A stretch of DNA of 64,000 bases from IMG/VR virus record IMGVR_UViG_3300045988_037736, positions 32,001 to 96,000 of that record. The stretch is one strand, 5' to 3'. The notes under the pieces were generated by a model. It was given only the letters and a program-made list of their open reading frames with translations. It did not search any database and was not told where the DNA came from. Both the position numbers and the translations under genes were made by a program. The stretch is from a virus. Of the stretch, positions 3,826 through 52,576 are shown piece by piece. The first letter of the stretch is position 1. Each line of letters begins with the position of its first letter.

Positions 3826-6800
3826 TTATAGACAACCAAGCTCTTGTTCCATCTCTTGGTCTTCCATCTGTGACCAAGACACTTCATCTATATGCTTGGC
3901 AGCAAGTCCATCTCTTTGCTCCTGTGTTAGATTATTCCACTGTAGATGGTGTGGAATAGGAGTTAATCTTCCTCCTAAATCCCAACCCATTCCTCCAGTG
4001 AAGTCATCTTCAAATAGACCCTCTCCTATGCTCATATCAACTGCTATTCCTAGAGTAGGGTCAACAGTCATATCAACAGAGTCTGCTACCTGAGCTTCTA
4101 TAGGAGTTACAGGTTCTACAGGAGCCTCTACAACACCAGTTCCTTCATTAAGAGTCTCTTCAATTCCTGAAACCATTGCCTTCTCAGCATCAGTAAGTCT
4201 ATCATAGACTATCCTTAATGGCTTGTAAGGAACTGCAATAGTCTCTTGGAGTACAGGATTTGCCTCTGTATATTCTCTACCATCTATAAGAAGTTGATTA
4301 TCCTTCTCAGGTGATACTGAATAGTCAGCAGTTCCATTTCTCCAACCTGCTGGTGCAGGATAGGAAACTCCAATAGGAATAATGTTGAGAGCCTTCACTT
4401 GTACACCATATTTTCTCTCAAGGAAATCTTTATAAAGAGACAACTGTCTAGCATACTTCTCCCTCTTATGTTGGTCAATCCCACTTCTATTAGTCTTCAT
4501 ATCGAAGATATAGAAGTTTCCCTTTCCATCATAGGCAAGAATGTCAAGTGTTCCTGCTACATTTATAGTATGGACTTTACCATTGCTGTCAGCAACTTCA
4601 ACCTGCCCTGTAACAGTTACATCCCTTGGAACAACTGTCAAACCATTTACCTCAAGGTTATTCTTGAGTACAGTGAGTTGTTCTGCAAACTTCTGTAAAG
4701 CTTCAGGAGTAGCATTAGGATACTTGCTAAAGTCAGTTGCCACACCTGCAAAGAAGTCTCTTACAAACTCATCAATACCAGTACCTATATTAGTAGAGGG
4801 TGTTACCCAAGGACTGTTAGGGTCAAACCTTTCTCCAGCCTCTTCATCAGCAGCTATTATTGAAGTAACTCTAGCATATCTAGTACCTTTACTATCAACA
4901 TAGCCTGAGCCATCATCAGCGAGAGTAATAGATTTAGAGTCATCTACAATCCTATCTACTATCTCCTTTGCTCTTTCAGCAGCAGGGTTAGCAGCAGGAG
5001 CAGACTCTCCCTGTACTACAGTTCCAGTGTCACTGTCTATTACTGTATCACCTCTTACAACCTGACCATTAGGTACTACTACTGGCTCATTAACAGGAGA
5101 TGCAGGTGAGGCATTAGTAGGGTTAGCTACTGTAGTATATACAGGACTTCCATCACTCTTGAAAGGACTCTGTAGTGCTATACCTTGGATGATATAATTG
5201 AATGATACATTAGTAGGACTTACCTCAAGGAAACCATCATCATATATATCTGATAGGTTCTTCTTGGCTGCATTGTCTCCTTCAGCAGCTCTCTCTACAT
5301 CAGAGAATGGAACTTGCCATTTGATAAATGAGTCTCTCTCATTAGCCATTCTAACTTCTCCACTTTCATCAGTAAGAAGATTCTTAAGGAACTCATGCTG
5401 AGCAGCCTTACTTGCCTCTTCTGTCATTCCCTGATATACAGTAGTAAGATGTATAGGGGTAATGGAGCCATCATCATTGACAAGGTCTATACTATATACC
5501 TTCTTACCATCTGCTACCTGGTCTGTAGCAGTGACAGAGTAATGCCATCCAGACTTTGAAGGAACATTCATGTAGTTACTTATTTGATTCTCAATAGTAT
5601 TAGCCATTGAGTTAAGTAACTTTTCAGTATCACCTAAAGGTACTACTTGACCACTAGAATCTCTTGTGAAACTCATCTCCTCATCTGAGAAAGTCTCAAT
5701 GAAGTTAGCTATAGTCTTGGCAGCTCTTCTGGTTCTACTGTTAAAGTTGATAAGTCCATCTACACTGTCTCTTACTTGGGAAACAGTCTGTCCTTCCTTG
5801 TTCTGAGTTCTTTGTACTGGAGCAATAAAGATGTCTATGGGCTGTGTTCCACCATTCAGTTTGTCTTGATGGAATACAATCTTCTTTCTATTGTCTCCCA
5901 CCTTAACTATACCAAGTCTCTTTAAGAAATTCCTCTTGGCTTTTTGATAGCCCATTGGAGTTCCCTTATCCTGTTCACTAAGGTCATTCTGTCCAACATC
6001 AAGTACATTATTATTCTCCTGTCCTCTTCTACTTGAGTCAAAGCTGGTTGCAGCTACAATAGGCTTAAGTAGTTTGGTTACAACAGGAGAACCATCAGTA
6101 TTCTTTACAAGGGATGTGCCAGTATTGCCTACTGCAAGGCTCCTTATAGGAGCCATGTTCTTGCTACCTGGACTATATTCAACTCCTGTAGCAGACATTA
6201 CACTAACTGGTTGGAAGTGCTTATCCTGACCATCAACATTGATAGTTATTGGACCATTAGAAGATTCAACAACTGCAATGATAGGTAGGTCATTTTCAGT
6301 ATATCCAAAGCCCTTAGATTCCATGTTGCTCTTAACCTCATCTGTAAGTGCATCATCTGTAATGAACATCACTTCAGAATCTCTAGTAAGAACTCCATCT
6401 CTTAGGGCATCCTCAATACCATACTTATCATAGTACCTTACTATAGGAGTATCAGGATGAGATTGCCTCAGATAAGCTATATTCATACTGGTAATCATAC
6501 CAGATTCTGGATTACCAACAATGAACTGATAGTTCATCTTCCTTGCTTGAGTTCTGATTGCTCTTCTTCTCTTATCAAAGAATGGAGATACAGGAGCATC
6601 TACCCTAGGAGAAGGAGTATCAATCTTCTTCTCATCTGACTGAGATTTAAGAACCTTAGCTACAACATGTCTTAGAAGGTCAGGTACTTGAGTTTCATTA
6701 GCTTCTGCTCTACCATCCATAGCATTTGCTCTTGCAGTAATAGCATCTGCAAACTCTTGTACAGTGTCAAAGCTATTGGCAGACAGTCCTTCTATAAGAG

Positions 6801-9800
6801 CCTTTACCTGCTCCTTTGCTTCAGCAGTAAATGAAGGTGCATTCTCTGCAACTCTTAAAGCTACTTCAGCGGCTTTACCAACCTCCTCATTGCTATTTTC
6901 AATGAATGTGTCTATAACAGAACTAGGTTGGGTTACTTCAATAGGAGTTTCTACAGGAGTAACAGGAGTTTCAACTTCACCCTGCTCAACCATATCAGAT
7001 ACTGTAGGACTTCCAACTCTTTCACCATCTTCAGTAATATGTCCTGCTTCAGGGGTACTACCTCCAATGTCAAATATAGTTGGACCAGATGGAGTAGGGT
7101 CAGGAATTGCAGCTGGCTCTGAGGCTTCAACAGGAGTTTCAGTTGGAACAACTTCCTCATTATTAAGGTCTCTTTGTTCTCTTTCTGAGTTATACCTGCC
7201 CATTATATCTCTATAGGTTTGAATGGTCTCTTCTATAGAGTTATAGCCTGTAATCTGCCCTTCAATAGGAGCCTTCTCATTTGCTCTTGCAAGATGCTGT
7301 TCAAAGTAAAGATTAACTTCTCCATCCTCAGCAGCATCCCTATCATAGTCAAGTAGCATTTCAGCACCTGCTTCAACATCAGTTACATCAACTCCACTAT
7401 TACTTAGATAGTCAAGAGTAGCTGCAAAAACATCAGCTCTTGGGTCATTCTCTTCAAAGACTCCATTCCTTTCAGCCCAATCATAAATCTCTGACTTTCT
7501 TTCATTCTCTCTAGAGTATCTTTCAAACATATCTCTAGCTTCCTGAGGGAAATCATACCATTTACCCTTGTAAGACTGATTGGTAAGCATATCTTCTACA
7601 GCAGCTATTTCAGCTTCATCCCCTCTATTATAAATATCATCAAGTCTTTCTGAGAATTGCCAATAGTTACCATTAGTTGCTATATCAAGGAGTTCCTCAT
7701 TTTTCTTCTGTAGCATTCTCTGTTGTGCTTGATGTTTAACCTTTGCCACATACCTATTGAGGGCTTTAGGGCTATACATAAGAGCAAACTGAGAGTTCAT
7801 AGCAGCTCTATAGTCTCTTTCAACTCTATTCCTATCTGCAATCTTCTTGGTAAAGTCTTGATGTATAGAAGTACCTACACTATTAACTTTATCAATTTCA
7901 GCTTGCTGTTCCTGACTATATCTATCTCTATGCTTTGGGTCAAGCATAAAGGCTCTATCACTTGCAGACAGAGACATAATCTCAGAAGCAGAAAGAACTG
8001 TAGTATCTACAGGGTCATTATATGTAACACCATCCCTCTCTACTGCCTGATGCTGAGCATTGAAACTGTAGTCTTCCTGAGCAGACTTTATAGACTTGAT
8101 GTTTCTATCAAGTTCTCTAGCATAGCTTTCAGCCATAGCAAGAGTAGCTTGGTCTTCCTGTGAAAGAGAACCTCTCTTCTGCTCTCTCTTCATCTCTCTT
8201 ACAACTTGGTCAAGTTCAGACTTCTGTTCTTCAAGTTTAGAGAGTTCAGTTACAGCATTACTTAGTGAGCCAAACCTTGCTATAAGTCTCCTTCCTTTAT
8301 TATTGAGAGCTGAGCTTGGAGTAGCATCTTCCTGTGAGTTAAGTTCAGTTGTTACCTCAGCTATTTCTTCATCAAGTTGACCTATCCTCTTCTTATAGTC
8401 CTCAATAACTACCTTATTAAATACCATACTTGCCTTAACATCCTGGTCAATATTCTCTCCAAATATCTTCTCAATAGACCTGGTTTCTTTTGAAACCATA
8501 TCCATCATGTCAAGCATTTCATTGGCATTTCTCTGTATAGTCTGAAGGGCTTCCTCTCTACTTATGTTCTGAGTTCTGTTCTGAGCTGATGCCATGAACT
8601 GTTCAACAGCCTTTGATTCCTCTGACTCAGGGTCTTGCAGATTCTGAGCATCAAAGTTTGCCCTTGCCTGTAGGTTAGCCATAACAGCTTCATGATAACC
8701 AGTACCTTCAAGGTCATTAAGAGTTATAATGTTACTAAACATTTGACCAACTCTTGCATCTCTTGCAGCCTTTTCATCATTACTTTCTATAGCCTCTTGA
8801 TATTGAGTAAGCCATTCAGCAGTACCTCCTGCATTAAATAATGCTCTCTGCATACTTTCATCAGAGAAGTAGGTATTAAAGTGTTCAGCCATCTTCTCCC
8901 TCTGCTGATTGACAGCATTGATTTCAGTATTTGAGAATAAAGGAGTAAAGGCACTTCTCCAAGTAATACCCTTTGCAGTCATATTACCATTAGCACCTTG
9001 TTTCATACCAATGTTAGGTCCACCCATTGCAGTGGATAAAGCACCATAGACACCACTCTTTATAGCATCAAAGGATATAGCTGTATTACCTGCTGCTTGT
9101 AGACCTGCTGCAAAGGATTGCCAGAAGTCATTCTGAGCTGCTGTAGCTCCAGGGTTTGCACCATATTTATTGTCAATATACTGTTGCATTTTGTCTTCAG
9201 CATATGCCTGACCAAATGCACTAGATATATCCTGTGTGTACTCTTCAAAGCCTTCACCTAAAGCCTCCTTAAGCCTACCCTTAAAGGCTTGACCCTTAGT
9301 CATCTGTCTTGCTTGAGCTACCCATCTATCTCCCTGTCTTGCTATATTAACTGCATCTCCTACAGAGTTATTTCCTCCTATACCAATCTTCCTAAGAGCA
9401 TTCTGAACTCTTGGAGCTTGCTGACCTGCCTGCCATGTAGCATTGACCATACCATTTATAACAGAGTTAGTCCAAAAGTCATAGTACATAGCTGTGTTGG
9501 CACTTTCCTCGGCAGCTTGTCTATCTGCTGCCATATCAGCAGCATACTTTCCTTCAAACTGTGCTCTAGCTTCAGGGTTGGACTTTAAGTAGTCTGCTTG
9601 TTCCTGAGACATATTATGCTCTCTAGCATAGGCATCAATATCAGCATCTACCTTAGAAGCATATCTATTCTGAATATCTGTTTCAAGACCTTTCAGAGTT
9701 TCCTGTTTGGTCATAGCAGCATTCATGCCACCTTCAACTGTGCCTACTGCACCTGGAACAAGAAGATTTCCTATGTTCCTTGCCTTAGTCACTCCTCTTA

Positions 9801-10998
9801 GGAAGGATACTCCTTTTGCTGAAGCATTAAGAGTCTTTCCTCCCATAGCTACTTTTCCTAGCCAAGCAGCTCCTTTAGTAGCTGCATTAACAGCAGCAGA
9901 GCTACCAAATGAGAGGATAGTAGAGGCAGCAGTAAAACCATACTGACCAAATAACTCAAAGGGTGTATTAGCTGAAAATAAGGAGTTCTGTTGCTCAACA
10001 GTATTAAAGATAGGATTGTCAGATAGTCCAAGACTCTCCAATCTCTCTTGCTCCGATGGTGACCATGAGTTAGTAGTTGCAACCCTGTCACCATATCTAG
10101 TTACAGCATTATCAATTACATTCTCAAGCCATGACTCATCATCTTCAAGACCTATACCTACAGCACCACCTATCATACCAGCAGCTCTGATAATCATACC
10201 AGCAGCACTGTCAATAAACTGAGCACCAGAGTTCCATGTTTTTTCAAGGAATGACTGATTGTTTGCTACTGTATTTTGATAGTAGTTACCAAGAGCCTTA
10301 GCAGCAAACTGACCTCCACCAACTGCTTCATTAGCAAGATAGGAGGCAAGAACCTGCTTTCTCTCCTCTGTAGACATTGATAGCTTATCTGTACCATTAT
10401 ACTCCTTATACATTGGAGAAATTTCTCCTGAGAAAGAATCAAGGTCAGTCAGGTACCTTTCTAGAGTCTCTGAGTCTAGGGCATTAAGCTGGTTATAGTA
10501 GGTATCATATAGTTGGGCAGACTTATTCTCAAGATAGGAAAAAGCCTGCTCCCTCATAGTATCTCCTCCTGTTAACTTAGCATCAATTAGGGCATACTTG
10601 TAATCAGGGTCAAACAGGAACTTCCACACAGAAGTGGAAGATTCCTGTAAATCACTCCTAGCATCAAGGTCAGATGCTAGAGCCTTCTTTGCTACATAGT
10701 CATCTCTCTGTCCTTTCGTAAGAGAGCTTCTGCTGTTGAATATCTGTTGGTCTTCTTCACTGTTACTATTGCCAAATATATCCATGAATACTGTGTTCCT
10801 AAAGTAGTTATCTTTTTGAACATCATCCATTCCTTGAATTTCTCTAGCATACTGCTTCTCCCATTCAGCCCTATCATCTGCACTAAGACCGGTCAGTCCC
10901 GAAAAGTAGGACTGATTATACCTTTGCTGTAGAGTCTGTTGTGACTTCTCTGAAGGAAGAGCAAACATTCCAGTGGGACCACCCGCTAATATAGGCAT
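3826..10998 (-). CDS. giant 2390-aa multidomain virion/ejected-type protein. Gly/Ala-rich N-terminal part, Pro/Thr/Val-rich linkers, C-terminal RecB-family PD-(D/E)xK-like motif set (D..FDMK..QLSLY).
   Basis: Single 7.2-kb ORF, TAA stop, no in-frame TAG. Motifs LDILAYDG / IFDMK / QLSLY lie near the C-terminus (nt ~4440-4560). Confidence 0.75.
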   Translation of the reverse strand: MPILAGGPTGMFALPSEKSQQTLQQRYNQSYFSGLTGLSADDRAEWEKQYAREIQGMDDVQKDNYFRNTVFMDIFGNSNSEEDQQIFNSRSSLTKGQRDDYVAKKALASDLDARSDLQESSTSVWKFLFDPDYKYALIDAKLTGGDTMREQAFSYLENKSAQLYDTYYNQLNALDSETLERYLTDLDSFSGEISPMYKEYNGTDKLSMSTEERKQVLASYLANEAVGGGQFAAKALGNYYQNTVANNQSFLEKTWNSGAQFIDSAAGMIIRAAGMIGGAVGIGLEDDESWLENVIDNAVTRYGDRVATTNSWSPSEQERLESLGLSDNPIFNTVEQQNSLFSANTPFELFGQYGFTAASTILSFGSSAAVNAATKGAAWLGKVAMGGKTLNASAKGVSFLRGVTKARNIGNLLVPGAVGTVEGGMNAAMTKQETLKGLETDIQNRYASKVDADIDAYAREHNMSQEQADYLKSNPEARAQFEGKYAADMAADRQAAEESANTAMYYDFWTNSVINGMVNATWQAGQQAPRVQNALRKIGIGGNNSVGDAVNIARQGDRWVAQARQMTKGQAFKGRLKEALGEGFEEYTQDISSAFGQAYAEDKMQQYIDNKYGANPGATAAQNDFWQSFAAGLQAAGNTAISFDAIKSGVYGALSTAMGGPNIGMKQGANGNMTAKGITWRSAFTPLFSNTEINAVNQQREKMAEHFNTYFSDESMQRALFNAGGTAEWLTQYQEAIESNDEKAARDARVGQMFSNIITLNDLEGTGYHEAVMANLQARANFDAQNLQDPESEESKAVEQFMASAQNRTQNISREEALQTIQRNANEMLDMMDMVSKETRSIEKIFGENIDQDVKASMVFNKVVIEDYKKRIGQLDEEIAEVTTELNSQEDATPSSALNNKGRRLIARFGSLSNAVTELSKLEEQKSELDQVVREMKREQKRGSLSQEDQATLAMAESYARELDRNIKSIKSAQEDYSFNAQHQAVERDGVTYNDPVDTTVLSASEIMSLSASDRAFMLDPKHRDRYSQEQQAEIDKVNSVGTSIHQDFTKKIADRNRVERDYRAAMNSQFALMYSPKALNRYVAKVKHQAQQRMLQKKNEELLDIATNGNYWQFSERLDDIYNRGDEAEIAAVEDMLTNQSYKGKWYDFPQEARDMFERYSRENERKSEIYDWAERNGVFEENDPRADVFAATLDYLSNSGVDVTDVEAGAEMLLDYDRDAAEDGEVNLYFEQHLARANEKAPIEGQITGYNSIEETIQTYRDIMGRYNSEREQRDLNNEEVVPTETPVEASEPAAIPDPTPSGPTIFDIGGSTPEAGHITEDGERVGSPTVSDMVEQGEVETPVTPVETPIEVTQPSSVIDTFIENSNEEVGKAAEVALRVAENAPSFTAEAKEQVKALIEGLSANSFDTVQEFADAITARANAMDGRAEANETQVPDLLRHVVAKVLKSQSDEKKIDTPSPRVDAPVSPFFDKRRRAIRTQARKMNYQFIVGNPESGMITSMNIAYLRQSHPDTPIVRYYDKYGIEDALRDGVLTRDSEVMFITDDALTDEVKSNMESKGFGYTENDLPIIAVVESSNGPITINVDGQDKHFQPVSVMSATGVEYSPGSKNMAPIRSLAVGNTGTSLVKNTDGSPVVTKLLKPIVAATSFDSSRRGQENNNVLDVGQNDLSEQDKGTPMGYQKAKRNFLKRLGIVKVGDNRKKIVFHQDKLNGGTQPIDIFIAPVQRTQNKEGQTVSQVRDSVDGLINFNSRTRRAAKTIANFIETFSDEEMSFTRDSSGQVVPLGDTEKLLNSMANTIENQISNYMNVPSKSGWHYSVTATDQVADGKKVYSIDLVNDDGSITPIHLTTVYQGMTEEASKAAQHEFLKNLLTDESGEVRMANERDSFIKWQVPFSDVERAAEGDNAAKKNLSDIYDDGFLEVSPTNVSFNYIIQGIALQSPFKSDGSPVYTTVANPTNASPASPVNEPVVVPNGQVVRGDTVIDSDTGTVVQGESAPAANPAAERAKEIVDRIVDDSKSITLADDGSGYVDSKGTRYARVTSIIAADEEAGERFDPNSPWVTPSTNIGTGIDEFVRDFFAGVATDFSKYPNATPEALQKFAEQLTVLKNNLEVNGLTVVPRDVTVTGQVEVADSNGKVHTINVAGTLDILAYDGKGNFYIFDMKTNRSGIDQHKREKYARQLSLYKDFLERKYGVQVKALNIIPIGVSYPAPAGWRNGTADYSVSPEKDNQLLIDGREYTEANPVLQETIAVPYKPLRIVYDRLTDAEKAMVSGIEETLNEGTGVVEAPVEPVTPIEAQVADSVDMTVDPTLGIAVDMSIGEGLFEDDFTGGMGWDLGGRLTPIPHHLQWNNLTQEQRDGLAAKHIDEVSWSQMEDQEMEQELGCL

Positions 10999-11021
10999 AA
11001 TTTATAAATATTTTTAAGTTA

Positions 11022-12410
11022 TTACATACCACTAGATGCATCATCATCTGCTACTGTAGCAGGGGTTGATGAGCTACTCACCTTAGGAACAAGCCAGAAG
11101 TGGTCATCTACAGTTGTCTGTGTCTTCACAGCAATCTCTATCTCATTTACATCATAGCCAGTTCCTGCCAATCTTCTCCTTACATACTGTTGTTGAGTAG
11201 GACTCAACTGACTAAATTGTATATATTGGACATCTCCTGGGATAACATAACCTTCTTTATCCTCCTTATCCCCTCTAGAGTCAGGATTAGAAGCTTGTGC
11301 ATTATCTGCTCTCCAGTGAATGTTACCTAATGGCTTTCTTTGCGCTTTAGCTTTTGCAACTTCAGCAGCTGTTGGAGTAGGTGTTGGAGTAGGTGTTGTA
11401 GATTTCCATGTTACTCCATCAGACTGTAAAATTTCAGTCCATTGCAGCTTACCATTACTATAGAATTTAGTCTTGCCATCAGCAGAAATATAATAAGGTT
11501 TAGCTCCTGAAGCAATACTATCCTTCTCCTTAGCATACTCAAACTGGTCTCTTTGTAGCTGTACTGAGGCTGCTTGATTAGCAAGAGACTGTCTTTGTGC
11601 AGCATTGATATACTCGCCATTCTCAGTAAACTGATAGGTAGGCTTAGCAAGACCTGCATACATACCAGTAGTAACACTACTTAGAACTTGCTGTCTTGCA
11701 GCATCTCCCCAATCAGCAACATTGGCAAGTTCATCATCCATTATCTGTCTGAACCCTTGTAGCTTTGTTCTAAGAGCTTCTGATATATTTGGATTATTAA
11801 GCTGGTCATTTACTACAGCATAGAACATCTCAGGACTCATGCCATTCTGCTGAGTTATCTGATATTTCTGACCACCAAGAACTGTCTTAAATTCAGGGTC
11901 ACTGAATAATGACTTACCTAATGCTTCTGCTTTTGCAGATGTTCTTGCAAGTATATCCTTACCACTTACATAATCCTCACTTACTGTCTTTCCATGTAAG
12001 AAATCATCAAGGGAGAGATTCTCAACCTTGAATATAGCTGAGTTATCTCTTGCCCTTGTATCTCTCCTATATTTTATAGCTTCCTGTCTGGCAGCATCTG
12101 CTCTTGCAATAGGAGTAATCTCCTTTGCATATCTTCTTTTGAGACCAAGGAGCTGCCTTCTGTTAGCCATTGTCATTCCTCTACTGAAGTCATCAGTAAC
12201 AGTTTCTAAATCCTTAGCATATCTACTAAACATTGCATAGGCTTCAGGACTATTCTCCTGTGTTGCAATATCTCTGAATGCCTCAGTCTGAGTTGCAAGA
12301 TTTGCATACTGCTCTTCAGCTTCATTATAAGCTTTGGTGTAATCCTCTAGAGGCTTTACCAGCTGCTCATATGTAAAAGGATTAAACCTACTATTTACAA
12401 CTATATTCAT
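11022..12410 (-). CDS. hypothetical protein 462 aa (PTPTPT linker; structural module)
   Basis: Clean ORF with TAA stop. The start overlaps the upstream gene's stop region. Confidence 0.7.
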   Translation of the reverse strand: MNIVVNSRFNPFTYEQLVKPLEDYTKAYNEAEEQYANLATQTEAFRDIATQENSPEAYAMFSRYAKDLETVTDDFSRGMTMANRRQLLGLKRRYAKEITPIARADAARQEAIKYRRDTRARDNSAIFKVENLSLDDFLHGKTVSEDYVSGKDILARTSAKAEALGKSLFSDPEFKTVLGGQKYQITQQNGMSPEMFYAVVNDQLNNPNISEALRTKLQGFRQIMDDELANVADWGDAARQQVLSSVTTGMYAGLAKPTYQFTENGEYINAAQRQSLANQAASVQLQRDQFEYAKEKDSIASGAKPYYISADGKTKFYSNGKLQWTEILQSDGVTWKSTTPTPTPTPTAAEVAKAKAQRKPLGNIHWRADNAQASNPDSRGDKEDKEGYVIPGDVQYIQFSQLSPTQQQYVRRRLAGTGYDVNEIEIAVKTQTTVDDHFWLVPKVSSSSTPATVADDDASSGM

Positions 12411-12413
12411 ATG

Positions 12414-15104
12414 TTAGAATGTTAAACCTCTTTTCTTTCTTTTAATCTTACCACCATAAGCTTCCTTTTGAACAGGAGCATAAACTCCATGTCTACTAGC
12501 CCATGTTCTCCATTTTCTATCAACTTTCTCCCTACCAATATCTCCAAGAGAACTGAAGATGTTTGATAAGTTATCAGAGATAGCTTGTTCTCTTGCAAGT
12601 CTAGCTCTTGACCTTATATCAGCAGCAGCCATTGTACCTCTTAATGAGAAGTCTCTAGCTCTTGATAATGCTTCTTGGTTGGCTATATCAGCTTGCAGGA
12701 ATCCTTGGGAGTTCTGAATATTTGTACCTCTATTGAACTCTTCAACTTGATTCCTTTGAGCAAGGTTATATTCTTCAGCCTGTCTTGCTAAAGCACCAAG
12801 CTGGTTTAGATAGTTATTATCAGCAGCAAGAATGCCTGCCATTGCAGTGGCTCTGTTACCTCCTGAAGTATTTAGTAGAGACCTTCTTGAGGCACCTGCC
12901 TCTGCATTCATCTTGTTAATGTAGTAATCCCTATCAAATGGTCTATAAGTTAGGTAGTTACCAATAGGTCTATACCTTACAGGTCTGTAAGCACCTTTAC
13001 CACTGCTTGCTTCAAGTATGGCTGAGACATCACCATCATCAGGCTTTGTAAACAATGAAGTTCCAAGACCTATGGCAGAGCCTAAGATAGGCATATACCT
13101 CATCCAATTATCATAGTTGGGGTATTCACCTCCATTATCAGTAAGGTCAGGGGCTTTCTCATCAGTAGGAGCTACAGCAGGTCTTTCCTTATAGAATAGG
13201 TCTGTATAATCTGTATCTCCTTCACTACTTGTTCCTGTCCTTACATACTGATATGTTCCAGTTGTTGGGTCATAGTCAGGAATAAGTAGGTCTTCCAAAG
13301 GAGTGCCACTAGCATCTGTTCTTCCTGTAAGATACATCCTCTTACCAGTCTTTCTTGGAGCTACTGGAACTGGACTACCTGCAAGGTCTATTCCTGCGTG
13401 CATACCACCCCAACTCTTGTCAGCTGTCCTTGAAGAGAAGATGTCTTTGGTAAGACCCTCTAGAGTAAGAGGCACATATCCTCTTCTTCCTTCATTATAC
13501 CTATTAACTGATTCAACATACCTAGGTAGCCATTGATTTACCTCATCACTTCCCCAGTTATTGATGACATAGTTCCTTCTTGTCATAAATGGAGAGTTAT
13601 CTCCATACATAATATCCCAGTCAATAGAGCCATTTGACTTATAGGGATTGAATCCTTCTTGACCAAAAGTAAGACCTGGAGTAGAGTTATTATAATTGAG
13701 AGTCTGCATCCAGCTACCTGTTTCATACAGGTGACCTCCTCTCGCAAACTTTCTCTCTTCTTTTCTTTCCCTTACCTGCTCCTGTACTTCCATCAACTTA
13801 GACATGCTGTCTATCATTCCTGCCCTACTTATAGGGTCATTAGGCCTCTCTTCAGATTCTTTGCTCATTTGAATAGCAGCATCTGCAAAGGTGAGAGGTT
13901 TTGTTCCTCTTAGTTTATATTTCTTTCTTACTGCTTTTGGAACTCTTAGTCTGTTACTAAATACATAATCATTGAAGATAACTTCTCCCTCTTCTACAAG
14001 GTTAGGAATGCCTTCAGCATCCATTCCCATAGGAACTCCTTCATTAGGGTTTTCTTCATGTGTACCTCCATTACCCACAAGAACAAGTCCTGTATCAAAG
14101 TCAGCTCCATGTGTCATAAGGTCTCCTCCAAAGGCATGATGCCACTTAGCAGCGTTCTAAGCAAATATAGCTCTCTTTCTAGTTAAAGGATTTTTACTAT
14201 GGGTTAATTCCTCTGTAGTCTTTCCTGTTCTCTTCTTAGTAGCATTGAACTTACCTCTATTCTCTGGGTTAATATGTATTCCTCCACCTTCTGCAAAGTA
14301 CAATGGACCTCCATATGAGGCTATGTTTCTAAGTATATCCCTCTTCCTAGTCTATCCTATATTATACTGTGCATTTTCTAAAGAAGAACTAACATATTGC
14401 CTAGCAGTATCAGCTCTTTTGCTCATATCCTAATATAAATCATCTATATCATGACTAAATGCACCCTAACTGCCTAAATCATCATGATTAAAGTATCCAA
14501 CTGTTGGAGCAGTAGCCATCTCCTAAGCTAAAGCATCATAATCAGTAGCACTTGATTTAAACTGTCCAGCCTGGGATATTTGATTATTTAAAGAACTTAT
14601 AAGTTTTTCATTTCTTTCAGAACCAAATAAGTTATTAGTAACTCCTCCAAGTAGCTAACTTGCTCCCATTACTATACCCCCAACCATTGGGTTTACAGAC
14701 ATTAAGGCTCCACCTACAGTTGAGCCTATACTACTAATTCCATTTCCTACTGCACTAGACCTTTTTCCTCCAATTACATTACCTACAATTGAACCAGTTA
14801 AGGCACTTCCTAGTCCTATACCCTGTTTGCCCAATTGAGTAAGTCCTAAGGATGGATTAGTAGTTCCAGATGGTGGAAGAGGAAGGGTTGCTGAAGCAGC
14901 AGTTGGTTGAGTAGTTTTAGTAAGAGCTTGCAGCCCTGTTGATATAGCTTCTCCAGGCATAGTTTCTCTAATACCAGGCATAGAAAAAGCATCATCCATA
15001 CCTGGTATTCCAGCTAGATAATCAGGAGTACCTCCCCATGCAAAATAATTATTCCTCCCAAAAAGGAGTTTATTTGTTCTTTTTTTAATAAGTTTCTTTG
15101 CCAT
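12414..15104 (-). CDS. hypothetical protein ~896 aa, read through 6 in-frame TAG codons (all in the N-terminal third). C-terminal 567 aa is the TAG-free ORF 12414-14117.
   Basis: ORFs 14655-15104 and 12414-14117 are in the same frame. The intervening 540 nt translate cleanly if TAG is sense (TAGs at 14655, 14523, 14466, 14430, 14352, 14157). TAA stop at 12414. Confidence 0.55.
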
Positions 15105-15170
15105 CTAAATGAATTTTGTATGCAAATGTAGCAAAAATATCCCACTAATACAATAGTATAATACAATTAA

Positions 15171-15204
15171 TTAAAAAGGTGTAAGGTTTTTCTTACACCT
15201 TTTT
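15171..15204 (-). terminator. hairpin (AAAAGGTGTAAG / CTTACACCTTTT) immediately downstream of the giant recoded gene
   Basis: Perfect 12-bp inverted repeat 3 nt after the TAA at 15207. Flanked by A/T runs. Confidence 0.45.
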
Positions 15205-15206
15205 AA

Positions 15207-18200
15207 TTACATAGAGTACTTAGTAGATACATTATATATTGTCACTCTCTAGTTTTTATGTGAGGCACTCCCTAGAGTTATTTCACTCCATGGATTTCTA
15301 ATCCTTGCCCTACCATAGTGCCTTATAACATCTTTACCATCTTGTGCTACATAAGGAGACCTAGGAATATTAATCCTCCATATATTAAACTTCTTCCTTA
15401 TATCTCTACTATTAGTGAGGTCAGTATAAGCTTTCTAATAGTCATTCTCTGCTTGGATAAAATCAAATGGCTTATCAGAATTATCCTTTTGGTCAAAGTT
15501 CCGTACTTCAGCATTAACTTCCACTGTGTCAAAAATTTTTGTGTAAGGAGAATTACCATTAGATATATAAGTGAAACTAAATGGTTTAAAGTTACCATAG
15601 AACTCATTATATACCCCAGTGAAGTTCTCCCATAGCCTAACTTTATCCTATTCCTATTTTATAGAGTAAAAACCACCTTCAAAGTCAAACATACCTTCAG
15701 TTTCACCATAACTTAAAAAGGAAGTGAACTAGTTAAGCTTAGTTGAGAAACATAAAGCTTCTTCGCCATGAGCTGGAGAGAAATATACATCCCCATTCAT
15801 ATTATCAACAAAGCTTCTTACTCCCATTCCTGTAGGAGTCCACTCTGATAAGTCAACATCATTCTTAACCCACTAACTCATTCCTGAAAGCTCACTTACA
15901 TTTACTAATTCCTAACCATATCTATAAATACTTTTGGACTCGTTATCTATGAAGAATAGACCTGTTGAGGTAGGAATAATAGACCATTTATTAGCACATC
16001 CAATAGTAGAGGATAGAATCCTGAACCCATCTACTCTGTTTGAATTTCCTATCTCAATAGGTACTCCGTCTGTAGGATTGAGCTATACTCTAGAATTAAA
16101 CATAATCTAGCTAATAGATTTTTCCTAGAAGCCAATAAGAGTATCATTGATGGAGGTTAGACATGTTACAGACCCTTTATCAGCAGGAAGGTCTAAGGTA
16201 CTAGCTAAAGTGACATTAGTCCATGGGTCAATTATAGACTAGGGATTTTTCTTTAAGGACCATGCTACCTAGTAAGGAAATGTATCTATTTTATAATAGT
16301 CCTTGTCTAGTGTTCTGTAGTTAAAGAAGTTATCTAACTAAGAGTATACTTCATTTATCTTATAAGAGTCAGGAGTAATGTCGAAGTTGGATAGCTGCCC
16401 TCTTTTAGTATCGTATCTTCCATCAAGATTAATATGTGACTCAAGCATAAATGAACCTATTTCTACTATCTAATTAGTATCATCATCTGCAAAAGGATAA
16501 GTCTTTACACAATCATATCTTGTACACCATGTATCCCCATAGGCATAAGGAATCGTAATTATCTTATGTGGAGTTGATACAAGAGGAACTGACTCACTAC
16601 TTGGAACCCATAAGTTATTTTTGATAGCTTCATCCGATTTACCTCCAAACCTAGTGTCTGGGTCAACCCACTATGTTAATTCAGCTATAGGTAATGTGGG
16701 GGAATAATCTTTATCCTCTTCAAGTAACTACAGAGTGCTATTCTGGATGGTAAACGTATTATCTGTATTATCTGTAGATGGCTCTGAATACATTTTATAA
16801 GATGTAATACCAACTATATTTCCGAGAGATACCTTTAAGTTTAATAATACCTAATCCCCAAGATACTAAAAGTTATCATGACCATCCTGTAAGTTTTCAA
16901 AAGGACCCCATTTTATTGGCCCCGCATTCTGAAGAACTCCTACCCACTCACCATTTACATAGTGATGATAGATTATACATCCTTTCTTCACTAAAACAGT
17001 CACTTTAGTTCCTGAGTTTTGTACCTGCCAATACCCTACTTCTCCTATCTTTACCCTTTTAACCAATACACGCTTAGCTATGGGTCCAATGTAAGCCATT
17101 ACAATCTGATAGGTTCCTAGAGCAGTCACACTTGTATCGTCAACATCTAGTACTAAGTTCCCCTCTTTGTTATAAGTCCCATAAAAGGTTTTTGAGCCTA
17201 TAAATGAAAGGATAGGATATGAAGTACTGGTAGAAGTATTATTCTCCCATCCAGAGGGGGTATACTATGAAGTTATAGTCTCACCAGTAACAGAAGTGTA
17301 TGGTAGTACTGGAATAACCTTAGGGTTATCCTCATCATATAAAGAGAATACTAAGTGAGGAGATGATTTATACTTCATTCTTACTGACTCCCCAGAAGTA
17401 GGTACATTAGTAGGGGATACTTGTGAAATACTATCATCAGTACCAGCATAAATAGGATAAGCTGATGTGGCTGATACAATATCATCTACATTTCCAAAGT
17501 ATAGTACATCCTAGTCTAAATGTGGAACACGAACAGTTAAGCCTGTAACCTCTTTAGAAGAGAATAACTTAGGAGTTGTAATTTTAATATTGTGGTTATT
17601 AGAGTTAAAAAAAGTTGACTTACTTTCAAAATACTTTAAATTGGAAATAATCTTCCATTTTAGTATAGCTGTTCTATTTCCGGATTTCTCTATAATCTCA
17701 GGAGACCTGACAATATCATTATTTAGTGAGCCTGTTCTATGCCAAGGATAAACTAAATATTTAACAATACCTGTCTTATCATCATCTAAAAAATCCCCTC
17801 TTAGTATTTTATCTTCAAAACAACATGATGATACAAATCCTCCATTAACAGTAGTATTAGGAGTAGTACAGTTCACTGGAAATCCTACAGGATGATGTAT
17901 AAATCCTCCAGCCTGAGAACTAGCTTTAGAGGTCACTGCTAAATCTATATCTCCATACAATCCATGTAGGCTAGCGGCTCCAACAATATTTAGCCTTGCT
18001 CCTTCTAATTGAGTAGTATTTATATAGGACCCATACTCAATTTCTGGGGAATGTAAAGTAACTAAGTTACTATCAACAGCAAAAGTTGAATAATGAGACT
18101 TTATACCATCAGAGGGAGAAATAATTTCCTATATTGACTTATTGGAATCTCCTGGCAGAGATGACTATATTTCAGCACTTCTATTACCTCCACTGAAAAG

Positions 18201-19955
18201 TGTATAATTATGTTTATACTAAATAGTCGACCCCTAATCTATCGAGGTAGAGGTTTCTTTTGGCTTTCCATCTACATATACAGGAGATGGCCTAAAGAAC
18301 CAAGATGACATTGCATATGGGTTATTCATGTGCCTTCCTCTCACACTGTAGACAGTAGGATTTAAAACTCCCTAACATATAATATTTCTCTCCGCTGGCT
18401 TAGGGAAAACAACACAAGTTCTAGCCCTTCTTACTCCAGCTTTTAATAATGAGGCAGTTGCATTAGGGAATAACTAAAGTTCCTTAGTATCCACCCCGTC
18501 AGTAGTGCCCCAAAAATATGAATTATTTAACTCTACATCAAGAAAACCATCACCATCACCATCACTATTCCTTATGACTTTGTTTAATGGAATAGGTTCT
18601 GACCATTCTCCAGTCTTAAACTAAAATTGAACTCCTAATCTATATGTTTCTCCTGCCTTAAAATGACCAGGCTTAAACTATGGTAGATAAGGATAGTATT
18701 TATTTATACCCTAATTATCATAAGTATCTTCGGCTAAAAAACAATCTGTTAACCCTAAAGAGTCCCCATTTTCAGCCTCTTCCTATTGAAGTAATGTAGT
18801 TAGTTCTTTAGTATTTTTCTGAACAGTAATGTTTCCATAAAACATCACTCCTTCTTTGCTAGTGATAGTTCCAGCTAATATTGTTTGTCCCCCAGTATAT
18901 AATAGTTTAGCAGGGTCTTCTATTGAACCAGTAAGACCAGTATCTGTATATTCAATTGTTTTTACCAGCTAATCCTCAGAACCAAACACATCATACCAGT
19001 ATTCTCCTTCAGCACTTTCCTCCTAGCAATCTTTTAAGTCTAAGTCAGCTACAATCTTAACTGTAGGCTATGCGTCTAGTGAAGTTCTATGTATAGAATA
19101 AACCCTTATATAATCAAAGTTATCAACATTTTCTACTTTAATTGTGAAAGAAGTTATAACCTTCTCTTCTGGATTACCAGCTCTATCATAATTCCTTATA
19201 TACTATATGGGAGATACATAGAATATGTTACTTTCTTGCCCATACTTATTAAAGTATGTAAGAGCATATTGAATTACTCCAGGAGAAAATTCTCCATGAC
19301 TGGAACTTCTACCTACCAGTACTCTTTCTTTTAACTATAGGTTCTATACAAAATCAAATGGAGACTCAGCTCTGTATATCCAATTTCCTTTTTCATACCA
19401 CTTTTCTAGATTTTCTATAACTTCCTAGGAAACTCCCTCACTTTTCTATGGATTTGAGAAATTAACTCCGTCTACTATAACTTTACTAGCTATATCTTCA
19501 GGAAGTTTCAACTCTGGGGCAGTTATATTAATAACTCTAGGCTGGTTAATTCCATCTGTCCAATACAACTTATTCACAAGAACTGACTCACTATCCCCTA
19601 ATATTTCTAGAGGGTGATTAGCATCAAGACCTAGCACTCCTTCAAATAGAGTAACTTTAATCCACTCCCCTTTATCTTCATGGAGTCTATATATTCTAGA
19701 TACTTCCTGAGTGTCATTCTAACTTACAGTAAATACTACTAAGTATCTATTAAGCACACAATGTCCTACGTACTACCCATCAAAAACAACACCAGTGTCC
19801 GTATTTCCCTTCTCATTAGTGATAGAAAACCCAGTATCACTATCCCTATTAGTAAGTCTCACATTTAAAGCATCCCATAAAAAAGACTCATCTTGTCTTG
19901 ATGGGTGAACATCTCTCCTTAGGCCTTTAAATATATGATTATCTGAATACATCAT
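15207..19955 (-). CDS. giant (~1582 codons) tail-fibre/tail-like protein encoded with dozens of in-frame TAG codons
   Basis: Five tracked minus ORFs in this span (ending at 16866, 17511, 19446 and 19773, plus the start MMYSD at 19955) share one frame. Each ends in CTA (=TAG on the minus strand). The first TAA in that frame is at 15207-15209. No other frame has ORFs >=60 aa across 5.7 kb. Confidence 0.55.
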
Positions 19956-19965: not shown

Positions 19966-20664
19966 TTAATGAAGTTTGATATACTCCTTAGAACCAAGAG
20001 TTTTAAACCCTTTGCTATGCTCATTAGTCCTGGAGATTAAAGTATTCCAAGAATTAGTGAAAGATTGGAGTTGGTCAATAGAGGGCCTAACAAGGTCAGA
20101 CTGAGCTTGACCCACTGCCCAAGCATATTGTTGTTCTGCGTGTTGCAGAACCTGTTGAGTTATCCTACCAAGCTCAAACTGAACTGTAAAATGTTTTACC
20201 TTTATAAATAGCTCAAGTGCTTCCTCAAAAGAACCATTCTCTGGTATGAGAGGGAATCCTTCTTCATCTGTCGAGAAAGCTCTATAAGCTACTTCTATAG
20301 TTCCTTCCTTCATAGAAGTAAAAATACAACTTCCCTGTAGTTTATAGGTAAGGTCATTATCTCTTGTCTTATCAGGACTCATATGAAATGAATCAGTAGA
20401 GTATCTGAATACTTCATGAAGTACTCCATTACAGTTATGACCAACTGCTCTTACCTGTATCATTTCATAGAAGTCACAAGGTAGCTTACCTCTATAATTC
20501 TCTATCTCAACCTTCTCTGTTTTCTCAAGGAATATTGAGGGCATACCTACCTTCTGTATGAACCTGACAGCATAATTGACTGCCCTTTCTAAAGATAAAT
20601 CTTGTAGCAAGGGATTATCCATCAGGTTATCAAGAACTTGTCTTATGCTTATATATTTTGTCAT
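19966..20664 (-). CDS. hypothetical protein 232 aa
   Basis: Clean ORF, TAA stop 10 nt upstream of the next gene's start. Confidence 0.65.
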   Translation of the reverse strand: MTKYISIRQVLDNLMDNPLLQDLSLERAVNYAVRFIQKVGMPSIFLEKTEKVEIENYRGKLPCDFYEMIQVRAVGHNCNGVLHEVFRYSTDSFHMSPDKTRDNDLTYKLQGSCIFTSMKEGTIEVAYRAFSTDEEGFPLIPENGSFEEALELFIKVKHFTVQFELGRITQQVLQHAEQQYAWAVGQAQSDLVRPSIDQLQSFTNSWNTLISRTNEHSKGFKTLGSKEYIKLH

Positions 20665-22617: not shown

Positions 22618-23286
22618 TTAACTACTATATTTCCATATAAACCCGCCAGAGGTTTTGTGCTCCCCATTTAGGCATTTATACAAGGAAGCTTCAGCTATAC
22701 CAGTACATAAACTAGCTTCCTTAACTGAAGGAAAGGACTGTATCAACTCTTCTTCTAAAGAAAACTGTAGTACGCCCTTTATGGTTTTAGCCTTTATTAT
22801 CTTATCAGACCAAGTACAGGGTCTTCCTTTCAGAGACTTACTGATATTATTTCTCCATTCTTCTGTAAGCTTTACTCCCCTACGAACTAATGATAGCTTC
22901 TTTTTAACCTCATCAGTTCTCTTCTTTCCTCTGTTAGCTATAGAAATTCTATTTTTGGACTCTGTAGAAAATTTGTAGCCAACGGTGGAGTCCCCTCCTA
23001 TTGTGCAATTATATCCATGCACATAAGAGTTATATAGTCCTATGTAATATACTTCCAGCTTGTCAAGTTCTTCTTTAGCCTGCTTTTTAGAACTAAATAT
23101 TCTCTTTTCTAAAACTTCATATTTGAAGGACTCCAAACCATATTTAATTCTAGCCCTATTTATTTTAATTCCAGCATATGGCCCGACAGTGTTCCAATGC
23201 TCCCTTCGTATTTTCTCGTTAGTAGTCTGACCTATGTAAGATTTTCCACTTGGAGAAACATATCTATATATAACACCTTCAACCAT
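22618..23286 (-). CDS. GIY-YIG homing endonuclease (paralog)
   Basis: GVIYRYVSPSGKSYIGQT motif. Confidence 0.75.
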   Translation of the reverse strand: MVEGVIYRYVSPSGKSYIGQTTNEKIRREHWNTVGPYAGIKINRARIKYGLESFKYEVLEKRIFSSKKQAKEELDKLEVYYIGLYNSYVHGYNCTIGGDSTVGYKFSTESKNRISIANRGKKRTDEVKKKLSLVRRGVKLTEEWRNNISKSLKGRPCTWSDKIIKAKTIKGVLQFSLEEELIQSFPSVKEASLCTGIAEASLYKCLNGEHKTSGGFIWKYSS

Positions 23287-36311: not shown

Positions 36312-36412
36312 AGTTGAAGTAATGTCATAGAATGTACTCTGTGAATTAAGGTACAGGAGCTAGTTCTATACTTCATCAAAAAACTTTTCACCTAAATATT
36401 TGAGATTCATAT

Positions 36413-37516: not shown

Positions 37517-37523
37517 ATCTACA

Positions 37524-49742: not shown

Positions 49743-49757
49743 AATATTTCGATTTAG

Positions 49758-49830
49758 TTGCGGGAGGAGGACTCGAACCTCCGACCTTCAGGTTATGAGC
49801 CTGACTAGCTACCACTGCTAACACCCCACA
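49758..49830 (-). tRNA. tRNA-Met/Ile2 (anticodon CAT)
   Basis: Cloverleaf by hand: T-arm GGAGG-TTCGAGT-CCTCC, anticodon loop CTCATAA. Confidence 0.6.
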
Positions 49831-49836
49831 ATATAG

Positions 49837-49907
49837 AGCAGGATAGGAGAATCGAACCCCCAAATCCACTTTGGAAGAGTGGCATTTTACCATTAAACTA
49901 ATCCTGC
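49837..49907 (-). tRNA. tRNA-Gly (TCC)
   Basis: Perfect 7-bp acceptor GCAGGAT/ATCCTGC. Anticodon loop CTTCCAA. Confidence 0.7.
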
Positions 49908-49916
49908 ACTTACTTG

Positions 49917-50977: not shown

Positions 50978-50981
50978 ATTG

Positions 50982-52573: not shown

Positions 52574-52576
52574 AGT

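Follow-up and report, generated by a model that had tools for sequence, protein, structure and literature searches.

A crAss-like phage muzzle protein gene with 40 in-frame TAG codons predicted to be read as glutamine

Introduction

Genetic code 15, in which TAG encodes Gln, was described in crAss-like phages by Yutin et al. (2021; PMC7886860), who found it mostly in late genes and accompanied by suppressor tRNAs, with the beta group among those groups that have the most alternative coding. For two crAss-like phages, proteomics showed glutamine at TAG (Peters et al., 2022; PMC9523058), and a late-gene gating model was put forward by Borges et al. (2021; bioRxiv 10.1101/2021.08.26.457843), in whose crAss-like clade the families with a TAG preference included an amidase.

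Among the conserved hallmark virion proteins of the crassviruses is the muzzle protein, which serves as the gate at the tail tip. The muzzle of Bacteroides phage phiCrAss001, gp44, is known from structures (PDB 7QOK, 7QOL, and 8CKB; Bayfield et al., 2023, PMC10172136) as a hexameric gatekeeper of ~1 MDa that keeps cargo proteins and DNA inside the virion and that probably contacts the cell surface. Variation in muzzle length stems from insertions in the regions of the crass and IG2 domains (PMC10172136). [quoted passage not shown]

Here, a stretch of 64,000 nucleotides of viral DNA (the window; positions 32,001 to 96,000 of IMG/VR record IMGVR_UViG_3300045988_037736) was examined. The window constitutes about two thirds of a ~99-kb genome of a crAss-like phage of the beta group (Steigviridae-like). 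We consider it very probable that a single explanation accounts for the locus at 15207-19955, namely that this is a crAss-like gut phage that uses code 15 in its virion-gene block and in which the muzzle gene has 40 TAG codons that are read as Gln.

Results

Exact translation of the minus strand from 19955 to 15207 yielded 1582 codons followed by a terminal TAA at 15207-15209, as anticipated by an earlier, sequence-only reading of the window that had predicted a product of ~1582 aa closed by the first in-frame TAA. That reading had also stated that no open reading frame (ORF) longer than 150 codons is present at 15.2 to 19.9 kb, which agrees with the 149 aa of the longest standard-code ORF in this interval, and that fragments in one frame each end in TAG, which were located at 16866-16868, 17511-17513, 19446-19448, and 19773-19775. 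The very high TAG density that it described was apparent on counting: the frame was found to contain 40 TAG (the first at codon 61 and the last at codon 1569), no TGA, and a single TAA, which is its last codon. By comparison, 64 to 183 TAA plus TGA codons were detected in each of the five remaining reading frames of this 4.7-kb DNA, and ~90 would be expected per 1582 codons from the base composition, with a probability of ~1e-40 of finding none in the muzzle frame. The start at 19955 (ATGATG) coincides with the N-termini of homologues, 117 of 120 of which begin at exactly this column; the alternative ATG upstream, at 20024, would generate a 59-nt overlap with the Ring-1 gene. At the opposite end, a conserved C-terminal motif of the protein is positioned downstream of the last TAG.

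The predicted product was identified by its relationship to known protein families. The Pfam families crAss_MUZ (PF25731; 796.5 bits, E-value 7.8e-239) and crAss_MUZ_C (PF25729; 57.7 bits, E-value 1.6e-15) were both matched well above their cut-off of 27, and phiCrAss001 gp44 (PDB 7QOK, 7qok_A; E-value 2e-214) was aligned from residue 4 to 1573 in stretches of 4-150, 196-782, 839-885, and 1101-1573 of the query. Amino acid identity to gp44 was 34.5%, and a separate global alignment gave 511 identities over 1292 aligned residues; hundreds of residue positions were invariant across the closest muzzle homologues, which aligned end to end. The nearest phage record by protein was IAS virus (36% identity), and no match to the muzzle gene was found by megablast against 50,697 phage records. 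Together with the frame and stop counts and the homologue N-termini, the Pfam and PDB matches define 15207-19955 on the minus strand as the gene of a Crassvirales muzzle protein homologous to gp44, an identity that is assigned from sequence. The sequence-only reading had suggested a tail-fibre-like protein; a virion tail protein it is, though by PF25731, PF25729, and PDB 7QOK a muzzle and not a tail fibre. In searches of Pfam and PHROGs, the sole matches were to crAss_MUZ and to families that PHROGs terms 'virion structural protein', fibre structures were absent among the PDB matches, and a tail-fibre, tail-spike, or receptor-binding identity was dropped for want of such a family match in Pfam or PHROGs. 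The description of the protein as Gly/Asn/Thr-rich was also overstated, as Ser topped the composition (S 8.8%, T 7.6%, V 7.5%, G 7.3%, and N 6.8%).

From homology to gp44, a five-domain plan is predicted for the protein, with a ring-joining domain, a seven-bladed beta-propeller, two Ig-like domains (IG1 and IG2), and a crass fold. Residues ~882-1100, encoded at 16656-17312 (minus strand), correspond to a variable inserted region that was delimited by the alignment to gp44. This region is ~170 aa longer than its equivalent in gp44 and is located inside the part matching the gp44 'crass domain', where residues 849-905 of gp44 are interrupted by insertions at 882-898, 933-993, 1002-1067, and 1088-1100. 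Homologue identity fell to 14-38% across it, and the AlphaFold model of residues 898-1029 (a TAG-free stretch with a 12-row alignment) was beta-rich and too poor to use (pLDDT 51.7, pTM 0.47).

The genes surrounding the muzzle gene were found in the order Ring3/4, AuxCP, Ring2, Ring1, MUZ, Cargo1, Cargo2, and giant ORF, which is identical in phiCrAss001 gp34-gp47 and in two relatives (L001 and L002); within it, the order of Ring1, muzzle, Cargo1, Cargo2, and giant cargo/RNAP is shared with phiCrAss001 gp43-gp47 and relatives. Directly upstream of the muzzle gene is the gene of tail ring protein 1 (19966-20664, minus strand; PF24228 CrAss_Ring_1, E-value 4.4e-71), which is devoid of TAG, and directly downstream is that of cargo protein 1 (12414-15134, minus strand; PF25725 crAss_CARG1, E-value 3.9e-57), which has 7 TAG, all within its first 326 codons. 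Four TAG-rich ORFs at 35.4-39.3 kb, a 1227-aa plus-strand ORF, and several others had no match in PHROGs or Pfam. A tmRNA was detected at 62.35 kb of the window; its interpretation as host DNA or the mark of an integration site is unlikely, as the crAss-like phage records cr106_1 and cr125_1 have annotated SsrA genes in which short segments of this tmRNA recur.

Downstream of the coding sequence, the sequence-only reading had described a 12-bp perfect hairpin 3 nt past the TAA. The hairpin is real, and it proved to be larger and to include the TAA: the terminator-like structure at 15168-15209 (minus strand), delineated by fold energy and a scan of 14.9-20.3 kb, reads from 15209 to 15168 as an 18-bp perfect stem that begins at the TAA itself, a 6-nt loop, and then a T-rich tail. 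Its fold energy was -21.7 kcal/mol (z -7.0, with 0 of 200 shuffles folding as well), and no second site resembling a terminator was found in 14.9-20.3 kb. Sigma-70-like promoter matches were no more frequent in this interval than expected (21 versus 21.8) and are thus uninformative, in a scan for the sigma-70-like as distinct from the Bacteroidetes type of promoter.

The decoding of TAG was examined by comparison with homologues. In six DNA-verified homologues free of in-frame TAG (L004, L006, L007, L009, L010, and L011), Gln accounted for 32.6% of the residues at the TAG columns against a background of 2.7%, a 12-fold enrichment, while no other residue exceeded 1.3-fold; of the columns with Gln in at least five of these six, 7 are TAG and 4 are CAA/CAG in the window. 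Among 116 database homologues, Gln was enriched 13.7-fold at the TAG columns, 8 of which are invariant Gln. Values for other residues at TAG columns were 1.8-fold for W, 1.1-fold for K, and 0.6-fold for Y. With TAG counted, the Gln content of the muzzle protein is 3.9%, compared with 1.4% when TAG is left out and 3.3-3.4% in standard-code homologues. The 25 of 40 TAG at positions that are not Gln in homologues, such as 1095 (R), 1348 (G), and 1361 (W), are uninformative on decoding. The proposal of the sequence-only reading that TAG equals Gln is borne out by these enrichments, which indicate that TAG is decoded as Gln in the muzzle gene. In-frame TAG in the absence of TAA or TGA was found in other conserved genes as well (TerL 5, portal 2, Cargo1 7, and Ring3/4 4). 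Across 31 confident genes, the stops were TAA (26) and TGA (5) and never TAG, a count that is partly circular as the ORFs were defined as ending at TAA or TGA, with the muzzle stop backed by homologue C-termini. The +4 base showed no difference between TAG and CAA/CAG codons (p 0.55), and a weak-termination context was not found by this comparison.

An array of 21 tRNAs was detected by ARAGORN and Rfam at 49757-54476 (minus strand), upstream of the structural gene block in the minus-strand gene direction. It includes (i) an amber suppressor tRNA with anticodon CUA at 50323-50395 (minus strand; Rfam tRNA 55 bits), which ARAGORN labeled 'Pyl' from the anticodon only; and (ii) a tRNA-Gln with anticodon UUG at 54404-54476 (minus strand), the standard Gln decoder, assigned by ARAGORN, Rfam, and its similarity to the tRNA-CUA. 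Among the tRNAs of the window, this tRNA-Gln was the closest to the tRNA-CUA, and the D-arms of the two differ at a single position. Counting against charging with Gln, the two tRNAs are only 67% identical overall and, by our reading, the acceptor stem of the tRNA-CUA is best taken as G1-C72, whereas that of the tRNA-Gln is U1-A72. We propose that the tRNA-CUA may be the decoder of the 40 TAG and would be charged with Gln. No match to release factor, GlnRS, or other aminoacyl-tRNA-synthetase families was found among ORFs of at least 300 aa in the window, outside which ~35 kb of the genome lie, and no Pyl-synthesis or PylS-like proteins were present among the scanned ORFs.

The frame and all 40 TAG were also kept in two strain assemblies (L003, 99.7% nt identity; L005, 99.4% nt identity) that are independent and non-identical, such that three assemblies including the window share the 40 TAG and assembly error is excluded; among these near-identical sequences (99.4-99.7% nt), the contig IMGVR_UViG_3300045988_064014 (98,782 bp) has the same 40 TAG. 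The strains differ in their downstream cargo genes, which are not alike between them. In public data, the near-identical cluster P0001 (46 members, Logan; 99% protein identity) is stored as a single full-length 1606-aa protein, from which it follows that its caller had already read through TAG; unlike our assignment, its start was placed 23 codons too far upstream, at the position equivalent to 20024, and the resulting protein runs into Ring 1. A 99%-identical protein is already in public data at full length, and TAG coding of this kind, being documented in phages, is not a new phenomenon.

TAG was found to be distributed unevenly among the genes of the window. TAG made up 65% of the Gln codons of the muzzle gene, while the share was 9-13% for the remaining confident genes on the minus strand; the enrichment over neighboring genes had a Fisher p of 1e-17 to 1e-22, and in lineages only 42-53% identical the muzzle TAG share was 46-56% of Gln codons. 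In contrast, the late virion genes MCP, AuxCP, Ring1, Ring2, Cargo2, and the 2390-aa giant ORF (0 TAG in 133 Gln codons) were free of TAG. In the relatives in which genes were counted (L001 and L002), MCP, THA, and Ring2 were TAG-free, with AuxCP having none in L001 and 2 in L002. Plus-strand genes at 59-61 kb and 85-3768 were TAG-free, as were many late genes, in a window that is almost all virion block. A simple model in which late genes carry TAG fits poorly, as the other late virion genes listed above are TAG-free.

Discussion

The timing of muzzle production, like any role that so many TAG codons might have in regulation, is inferred. While the host standard code applies, RF1 would end muzzle translation at codon 61, and full-length muzzle would appear only after the phage tRNA-CUA was expressed and charged with Gln. 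With p as the read-through at each TAG, the full-length yield would equal p^40, or 1.5% at 0.90, 45% at 0.98, and 67% at 0.99; near-complete suppression would thus be needed, and the muzzle gene would be a tight, late-only, and low-output gene. Whether the load was selected as a translational throttle is doubtful, and we regard it as unlikely. Under such a throttle, output would scale with the read-through to the power of 40, the gatekeeper, with its six copies per virion, would be produced sparingly and after the other parts, and timing and stoichiometry would be set by the level of the suppressor tRNA and not by promoters; if true, the model of Borges et al. would be extended from lysis genes to assembly order. 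A TAG load that is not regulatory at all, which would leave the identity and decoding unchanged, is a real possibility, though somewhat less likely than not. Here, CAG to TAG and other one-step changes would be near-neutral in an AT-rich genome once TAG encodes Gln, and TAG would accumulate in genes that are long, evolve fast, and have low-copy products, whereas selection would remove it from proteins that are abundant or strongly conserved, in which imperfect suppression is costly. The muzzle gene has a GC content of 0.35 and evolves fast (34.5% identity to phiCrAss001 versus 78% for MCP), 25 of its 40 TAG are at non-conserved or non-Gln columns, TAG and CAA/CAG swap freely at homologous Gln columns of relatives (QQXX, QXXX, XXQQ, and XQXX), and no TAG is present in MCP, AuxCP, or Ring2 of the window or in MCP, THA, or Ring2 of the two relatives. 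However, TAG (40) far outnumbers CAA (12) in the gene, and as each has one G/C, AT pressure alone is insufficient for this excess; moreover, the excess over neighbors recurs in lineages only 50% identical, and the low-copy giant ORF has no TAG among its Gln codons.

The reading of TAG as Gln was weighed against decoding that is not, or not only, as Gln (pyrrolysine, Trp, Tyr, Lys, or ambiguous), which we judge very improbable. The 'Pyl' label of the tRNA-CUA and the TAG on columns that are mostly W (1361), K (815), or Y (61 and 251) in homologues would favor it; yet clear enrichment at the TAG columns was seen for Gln alone, the label stems from the anticodon, the D-arm is one difference from that of the phage tRNA-Gln, and the proteomics of other crAss-like phages gave Gln (PMC9523058). 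Pyrrolysine decoding in particular was rejected on the 1.1-fold value for K versus at least 12-fold for Q and the absence of Pyl genes in the scanned ORFs. That the locus is a decayed pseudogene or a nonsense-laden assembly artefact with no full-length protein is hardly conceivable. A frame interrupted 40 times in the standard code is what such a view has to offer, but decay would also give TAA, TGA, and frameshifts, of which none occur in the 4.7 kb, and neither in-frame TAA or TGA nor frame-shifted homologues, the findings that the sequence-only reading named as contrary to its proposal, came to light. The end-to-end alignment with its invariant positions, the 40 TAG common to three non-identical assemblies, the 46 members of P0001, and the hallmark status of the muzzle in crassviruses (PMC10172136) likewise speak against this view.

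Read as a muzzle gene with TAG as Gln, the locus has practical consequences. Standard-code callers break this 1582-aa hallmark protein into pieces of at most 149 aa, and code 15 is needed for such phages. The extent of amber reassignment within one gene, at 40 sites and about two thirds of the Gln codons, sets a lower bound on suppression efficiency late in infection, and the muzzle gene is a natural reporter for read-through and for the effect of recoding on the timing and dosage of virion parts.

In relation to described systems, the muzzle of the window resembles phiCrAss001 gp44 in its homology over the full length, the presence of both Pfam domains, and its position between Ring 1 (gp43) and Cargo 1 (gp45), and by analogy with gp44 it would act as a hexameric gate for DNA and cargo at the tail tip. 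It differs in its length, which exceeds that of gp44 by 211 aa through insertions that include 149-193, 306-329, and ~882-1100, and in its 40 TAG, whereas the gp44 gene is in the standard code. The T7 nozzle gp12 is without a counterpart of the crass domain, which forms the bulk of the muzzle protein, and at the sequence level no match to T7-like families was found for the window muzzle in Pfam and PHROGs. As in other code-15 crAss-like phages, in-frame TAG is present in conserved virion genes, a suppressor tRNA is located in the array, and the stops are TAA and TGA. Earlier publications already describe the muzzle family, the change of code, and the suppressor tRNA, and nothing in the window differs in kind or constitutes a new mechanism; compared with these phages, the window stands apart in the extreme TAG share of its muzzle gene (65%) next to several virion genes with none, and, compared with the crAss-like clade of Borges et al., in an amidase gene that is TAG-free.

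A single TAG-interrupted frame encodes a crAss muzzle protein

The interval 15207-19955 (minus strand) had been flagged in a sequence-only reading as a hidden, TAG-interrupted gene for a tail-fibre-like protein, and this detection from the raw sequence was correct. Exact translation of the minus strand from 19955 to 15207 gave 1,583 codons with 40 TAG and no TGA, the sole TAA being the final codon (15207-15209); the proposed single long frame thus stands. The claim that no ORF exceeds 150 codons here also held, with the longest standard-code ORF within the interval at 149 aa, and the four fragment ends that had been listed were found to be TAG codons of this frame as well as standard-code ORF ends. 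The remaining five frames contain 64-183 TAA plus TGA; about 90 are predicted per 1,582 codons from base composition, and a clean frame would arise by chance at P ~1e-40. Upstream, the nearest in-frame stop is a TAA at 20037-20039, and between it and 19955 the frame has an alternative ATG at 20024. The start proposed at 19955 is the right one, because 117 of 120 homologues begin exactly at this methionine (MM..DNHIF) and a start at 20024 would generate a 59-nt overlap with the Ring-1 gene. The public call of P0001, a protein cluster (Logan) that is 99% identical to the muzzle, is 1,606 aa long and starts 23 codons earlier, at the equivalent of ATG 20024, overlapping Ring1; the homologue N termini show the ATG at 19955 to be the true start. 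The hairpin reported after the TAA is real and larger than the 12 bp described: this terminator-like element (15209-15168, minus strand) has 18 perfect pairs starting with the TAA itself, a 6-nt loop and a T-rich tail (−21.7 kcal/mol, z −7.0), and no other site of this type occurs in 14.9-20.3 kb.

Profile searches were performed with the translation in which TAG was written as Gln. Matches were found to Pfam crAss_MUZ (E 7.8e-239, 796 bits) and crAss_MUZ_C (E 1.6e-15), and to the muzzle protein gp44 of Bacteroides phage phiCrAss001, whose structure is solved (7qok_A, E 2e-214, residues 4-1573), while PHROGs returned 'virion structural protein' families only. No tail-fibre family was among the Pfam and PHROGs matches; the initial label was close, as this is a tail protein, but wrong as to its kind. 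By sequence, domain model and synteny, the gene is placed in the crAss muzzle family, at an identity of only 34-36% to any deposited phage. [quoted passage not shown] Its parts are a ring-joining domain, a propeller with seven blades, a pair of Ig-like domains and a novel fold, the 'crass fold'; gp44 gates the channel and probably touches the cell surface, and muzzle length variation across crassviruses has been traced to insertions within the crass and IG2 parts (PMC10172136). Compared with gp44, the window muzzle is 211 aa longer, with insertions at 149-193, 306-329 and ~882-1100 that are consistent with these sites of length variation. The ~882-1100 insertion is poorly conserved (14-38% identity among homologues), and the confidence of the AlphaFold model for its TAG-free core (898-1029) was too low for use (pLDDT 52).

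Glutamine is enriched at the TAG columns of the muzzle gene

The standard-code reference consisted of six homologues DNA-verified to be without in-frame TAG, namely phiCrAss001 gp44 and five IMG/VR loci. In these, Gln occupied 32.6% of positions at the window TAG columns versus 2.7% elsewhere (12-fold), with no other residue above 1.3-fold. Where Gln is present in five or six of these homologues, the corresponding window codon is TAG in seven cases and CAA/CAG in four. Relative to 116 database homologues, Gln was enriched 13.7-fold, with eight TAG columns being invariant Gln. Only 22 muzzle codons (1.4%) are CAA/CAG; counting TAG brings Gln to 3.9%, compared with 3.3-3.4% in the standard-code homologues. 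In three further recoded lineages, TAG and CAA/CAG were also found to swap at homologous columns. The base following TAG has a distribution like that following CAA/CAG, and conserved residues, including a C-terminal K-Y motif, are located past the last TAG (codon 1569). These several lines of evidence point to TAG standing for Gln in the predicted muzzle protein. The frame and all 40 TAGs are intact in two independent assemblies whose muzzle genes differ from that of the window by ~10 substitutions, and the 46 members of P0001 are stored as one full-length product. Readings of the gene as a pseudogene or an assembly artefact were rejected.

A tRNA with anticodon CUA (50323-50395, minus strand) belongs to an array of 21 tRNAs that shares the strand of the virion genes and lies upstream of them. 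It is closest to the phage's own tRNA-Gln(UUG), the D-arms being nearly identical (one difference). Pyrrolysine decoding was rejected, since Gln is enriched at the TAG columns and the ARAGORN label 'Pyl' reflects the anticodon alone. The ARAGORN boundaries (50323-50395) leave a mismatched acceptor stem; in our reading, a one-base shift (50394 onward) would give a fully paired 7-bp stem with G1-C72 and discriminator G, unlike the U1-A72 of tRNA-Gln(UUG). A search of the window's ORFs of at least 300 aa gave no release-factor or GlnRS gene; ~35 kb of the genome lies outside the window. All confident genes (31/31), called as ORFs bounded by TAA or TGA, stop at one of these two codons. The phage has one conserved muzzle frame, a suppressor tRNA of its own and no TAG terminators, and belongs with the code-15 phages (TAG read as Gln) on four of six criteria. 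Publications already cover both this recoding and the protein family, and public data contain near-identical sequences in which the gene call runs across the TAGs.

TAG is in excess in the muzzle gene

One unusual feature of the gene is its TAG share of Gln codons (40/62, 65%), compared with 54/573 (9%) in the other confident minus-strand genes (Fisher p 5e-22), or 54/407 (13%) without the TAG-free cargo genes (Fisher p 7e-17). More distant recoded relatives share this bias, their muzzle genes having TAG at 25 of 54 Gln codons (L001, 51% aa identity; p 0.002 versus neighbouring genes), 30 of 54 (L002, 53%; p 2e-5 versus neighbouring genes) and 13 of 27 (L008, partial gene, 42%).

According to the published model of code-15 late-gene expression (PMC7886860; bioRxiv 10.1101/2021.08.26.457843; PMC9523058), the host would read TAG as stop and muzzle translation would end at codon 61; full-length muzzle would be produced only after Gln-charged phage tRNA-CUA has built up, and this block would make the gene late-only. 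The full-length yield over 40 sites (p^40) is 1.5%, 13%, 45% and 67% at a per-codon read-through of 90%, 95%, 98% and 99%, respectively. Late in infection, suppression would have to be nearly complete, unless a low output of this gene is deliberate.

The excess may reflect either (i) a selected translational throttle or timer on the tail-tip gatekeeper, or (ii) near-neutral build-up in a gene that is long, evolves fast and is low in copy number, with TAG purged from abundant proteins. The window's MCP, AuxCP, Ring1, Ring2, Cargo2 and giant ORF have no TAG. The TAG-free giant ORF speaks against a simple copy-number rule, and TAG (40) being far above CAA (12) speaks against pure AT-driven drift. 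In the crAss-like clade that they studied, Borges et al. reported a significant TAG preference for four gene families only: one amidase, one spanin, one named 'tail tube' and one of unknown function (bioRxiv 10.1101/2021.08.26.457843). An endolysin-type amidase (PG_binding_1 plus Amidase_2; 51079-51678, minus strand) lies inside the tRNA array of the window and is TAG-free, whereas an amidase family prefers TAG in that clade.

A tmRNA is encoded on the plus strand

A complete tmRNA (Rfam RF00023) with a G3-U70 pair in its acceptor stem was detected at 62354-62749 on the plus strand (70.2 bits, cut-off 47, E 2.8e-25), where ARAGORN reported none. As we read it, the tag ORF from 62440 would encode AEVDETPVRMAA followed by TAA. 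Two tRNA-Arg genes (61270-61344 and 61607-61680, plus strand) lie just upstream, and the minus-strand 'ORFs' at 62019-63460 that overlap the tmRNA are probably spurious. Since the annotated SsrA genes of crAss-like records cr106_1 and cr125_1 share short segments with it, the tmRNA most likely belongs to the phage and is not a novelty.

Gene neighbourhood and placement of the phage

The cargo module (3826-14156, minus strand) looks mosaic in comparison with L001, L002 and the near-identical strain assemblies L003 and L005. The final 580 codons of Cargo1 are without TAG, as are the whole of Cargo2 and the 2,390-aa giant ORF (166 CAA/CAG in the latter two alone), and the L001 and L002 counterparts carry 9-33 TAGs each. 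Identity to L003 is 100% for Ring1 and 99% for the muzzle but drops to 92% for Cargo1, 66% for Cargo2 and 52% for the giant ORF, and the L005 nucleotide alignment ends at 13771. The giant ORF is only ~23% identical to its counterparts in L001 and L002, compared with 47-84% for other virion proteins, and GC is 0.40 in the module versus 0.35 in the muzzle. This pattern of TAG, identity and GC suggests that repeated recombination has exchanged cargo genes, possibly from standard-code phages.

Between portal and MCP, four consecutive ORFs (352, 367, 264 and 319 aa; 35358-39274, minus strand) are TAG-rich (7, 11, 4 and 3 TAGs; up to 58% of Gln codons) and have no Pfam or PHROGs match; by position they are candidate tail or head fibres. 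A 1,227-aa ORF (85-3768, plus strand) and a 521-aa ORF (56698-58263, minus strand), both TAG-free, likewise matched nothing in Pfam or PHROGs. Two free-standing homing endonuclease genes (22618-23286 and 47051-47716, both minus strand; one NUMOD1/NUMOD3, one GIY-YIG plus NUMOD) sit among the virion genes and are TAG-free. In L002 the MCP gene is split, intron-like, by an HNH endonuclease gene, whereas that of the window is intact. The TerL ORF (41774-46285, minus strand; 1,503 aa) contains Pfam Intein_splicing, two LAGLIDADG_3 stretches, Hom_end and five in-frame TAG, the same combination of intein and recoding as described for a delta-group TerL (Yutin et al. 2021, PMC7886860).

The window MCP matched Crass_capsid (E 2.5e-220) and is 78-81% identical to the MCPs of phiCrAss001 and cr85_1; the phage is therefore placed in the beta group (Steigviridae-like). 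In the giant ORF (3826-10998), only a PD-(D/E)XK nuclease-like stretch (residues 2097-2213) was detected, with no match to an RNA-polymerase family. On the minus strand, TerL (with LAGLIDADG and Hom_end intein-type inserts) is followed by portal, the four unknown ORFs, MCP, two Ring3/4 genes, AuxCP, a NUMOD endonuclease, Ring2, Ring1, muzzle, Cargo1, Cargo2 and the giant ORF. This virion gene order is common to relatives found via the protein database and corresponds to gp34-gp47 of phiCrAss001, with the giant ORF in the position of gp47, annotated there as a putative RNA polymerase subunit.
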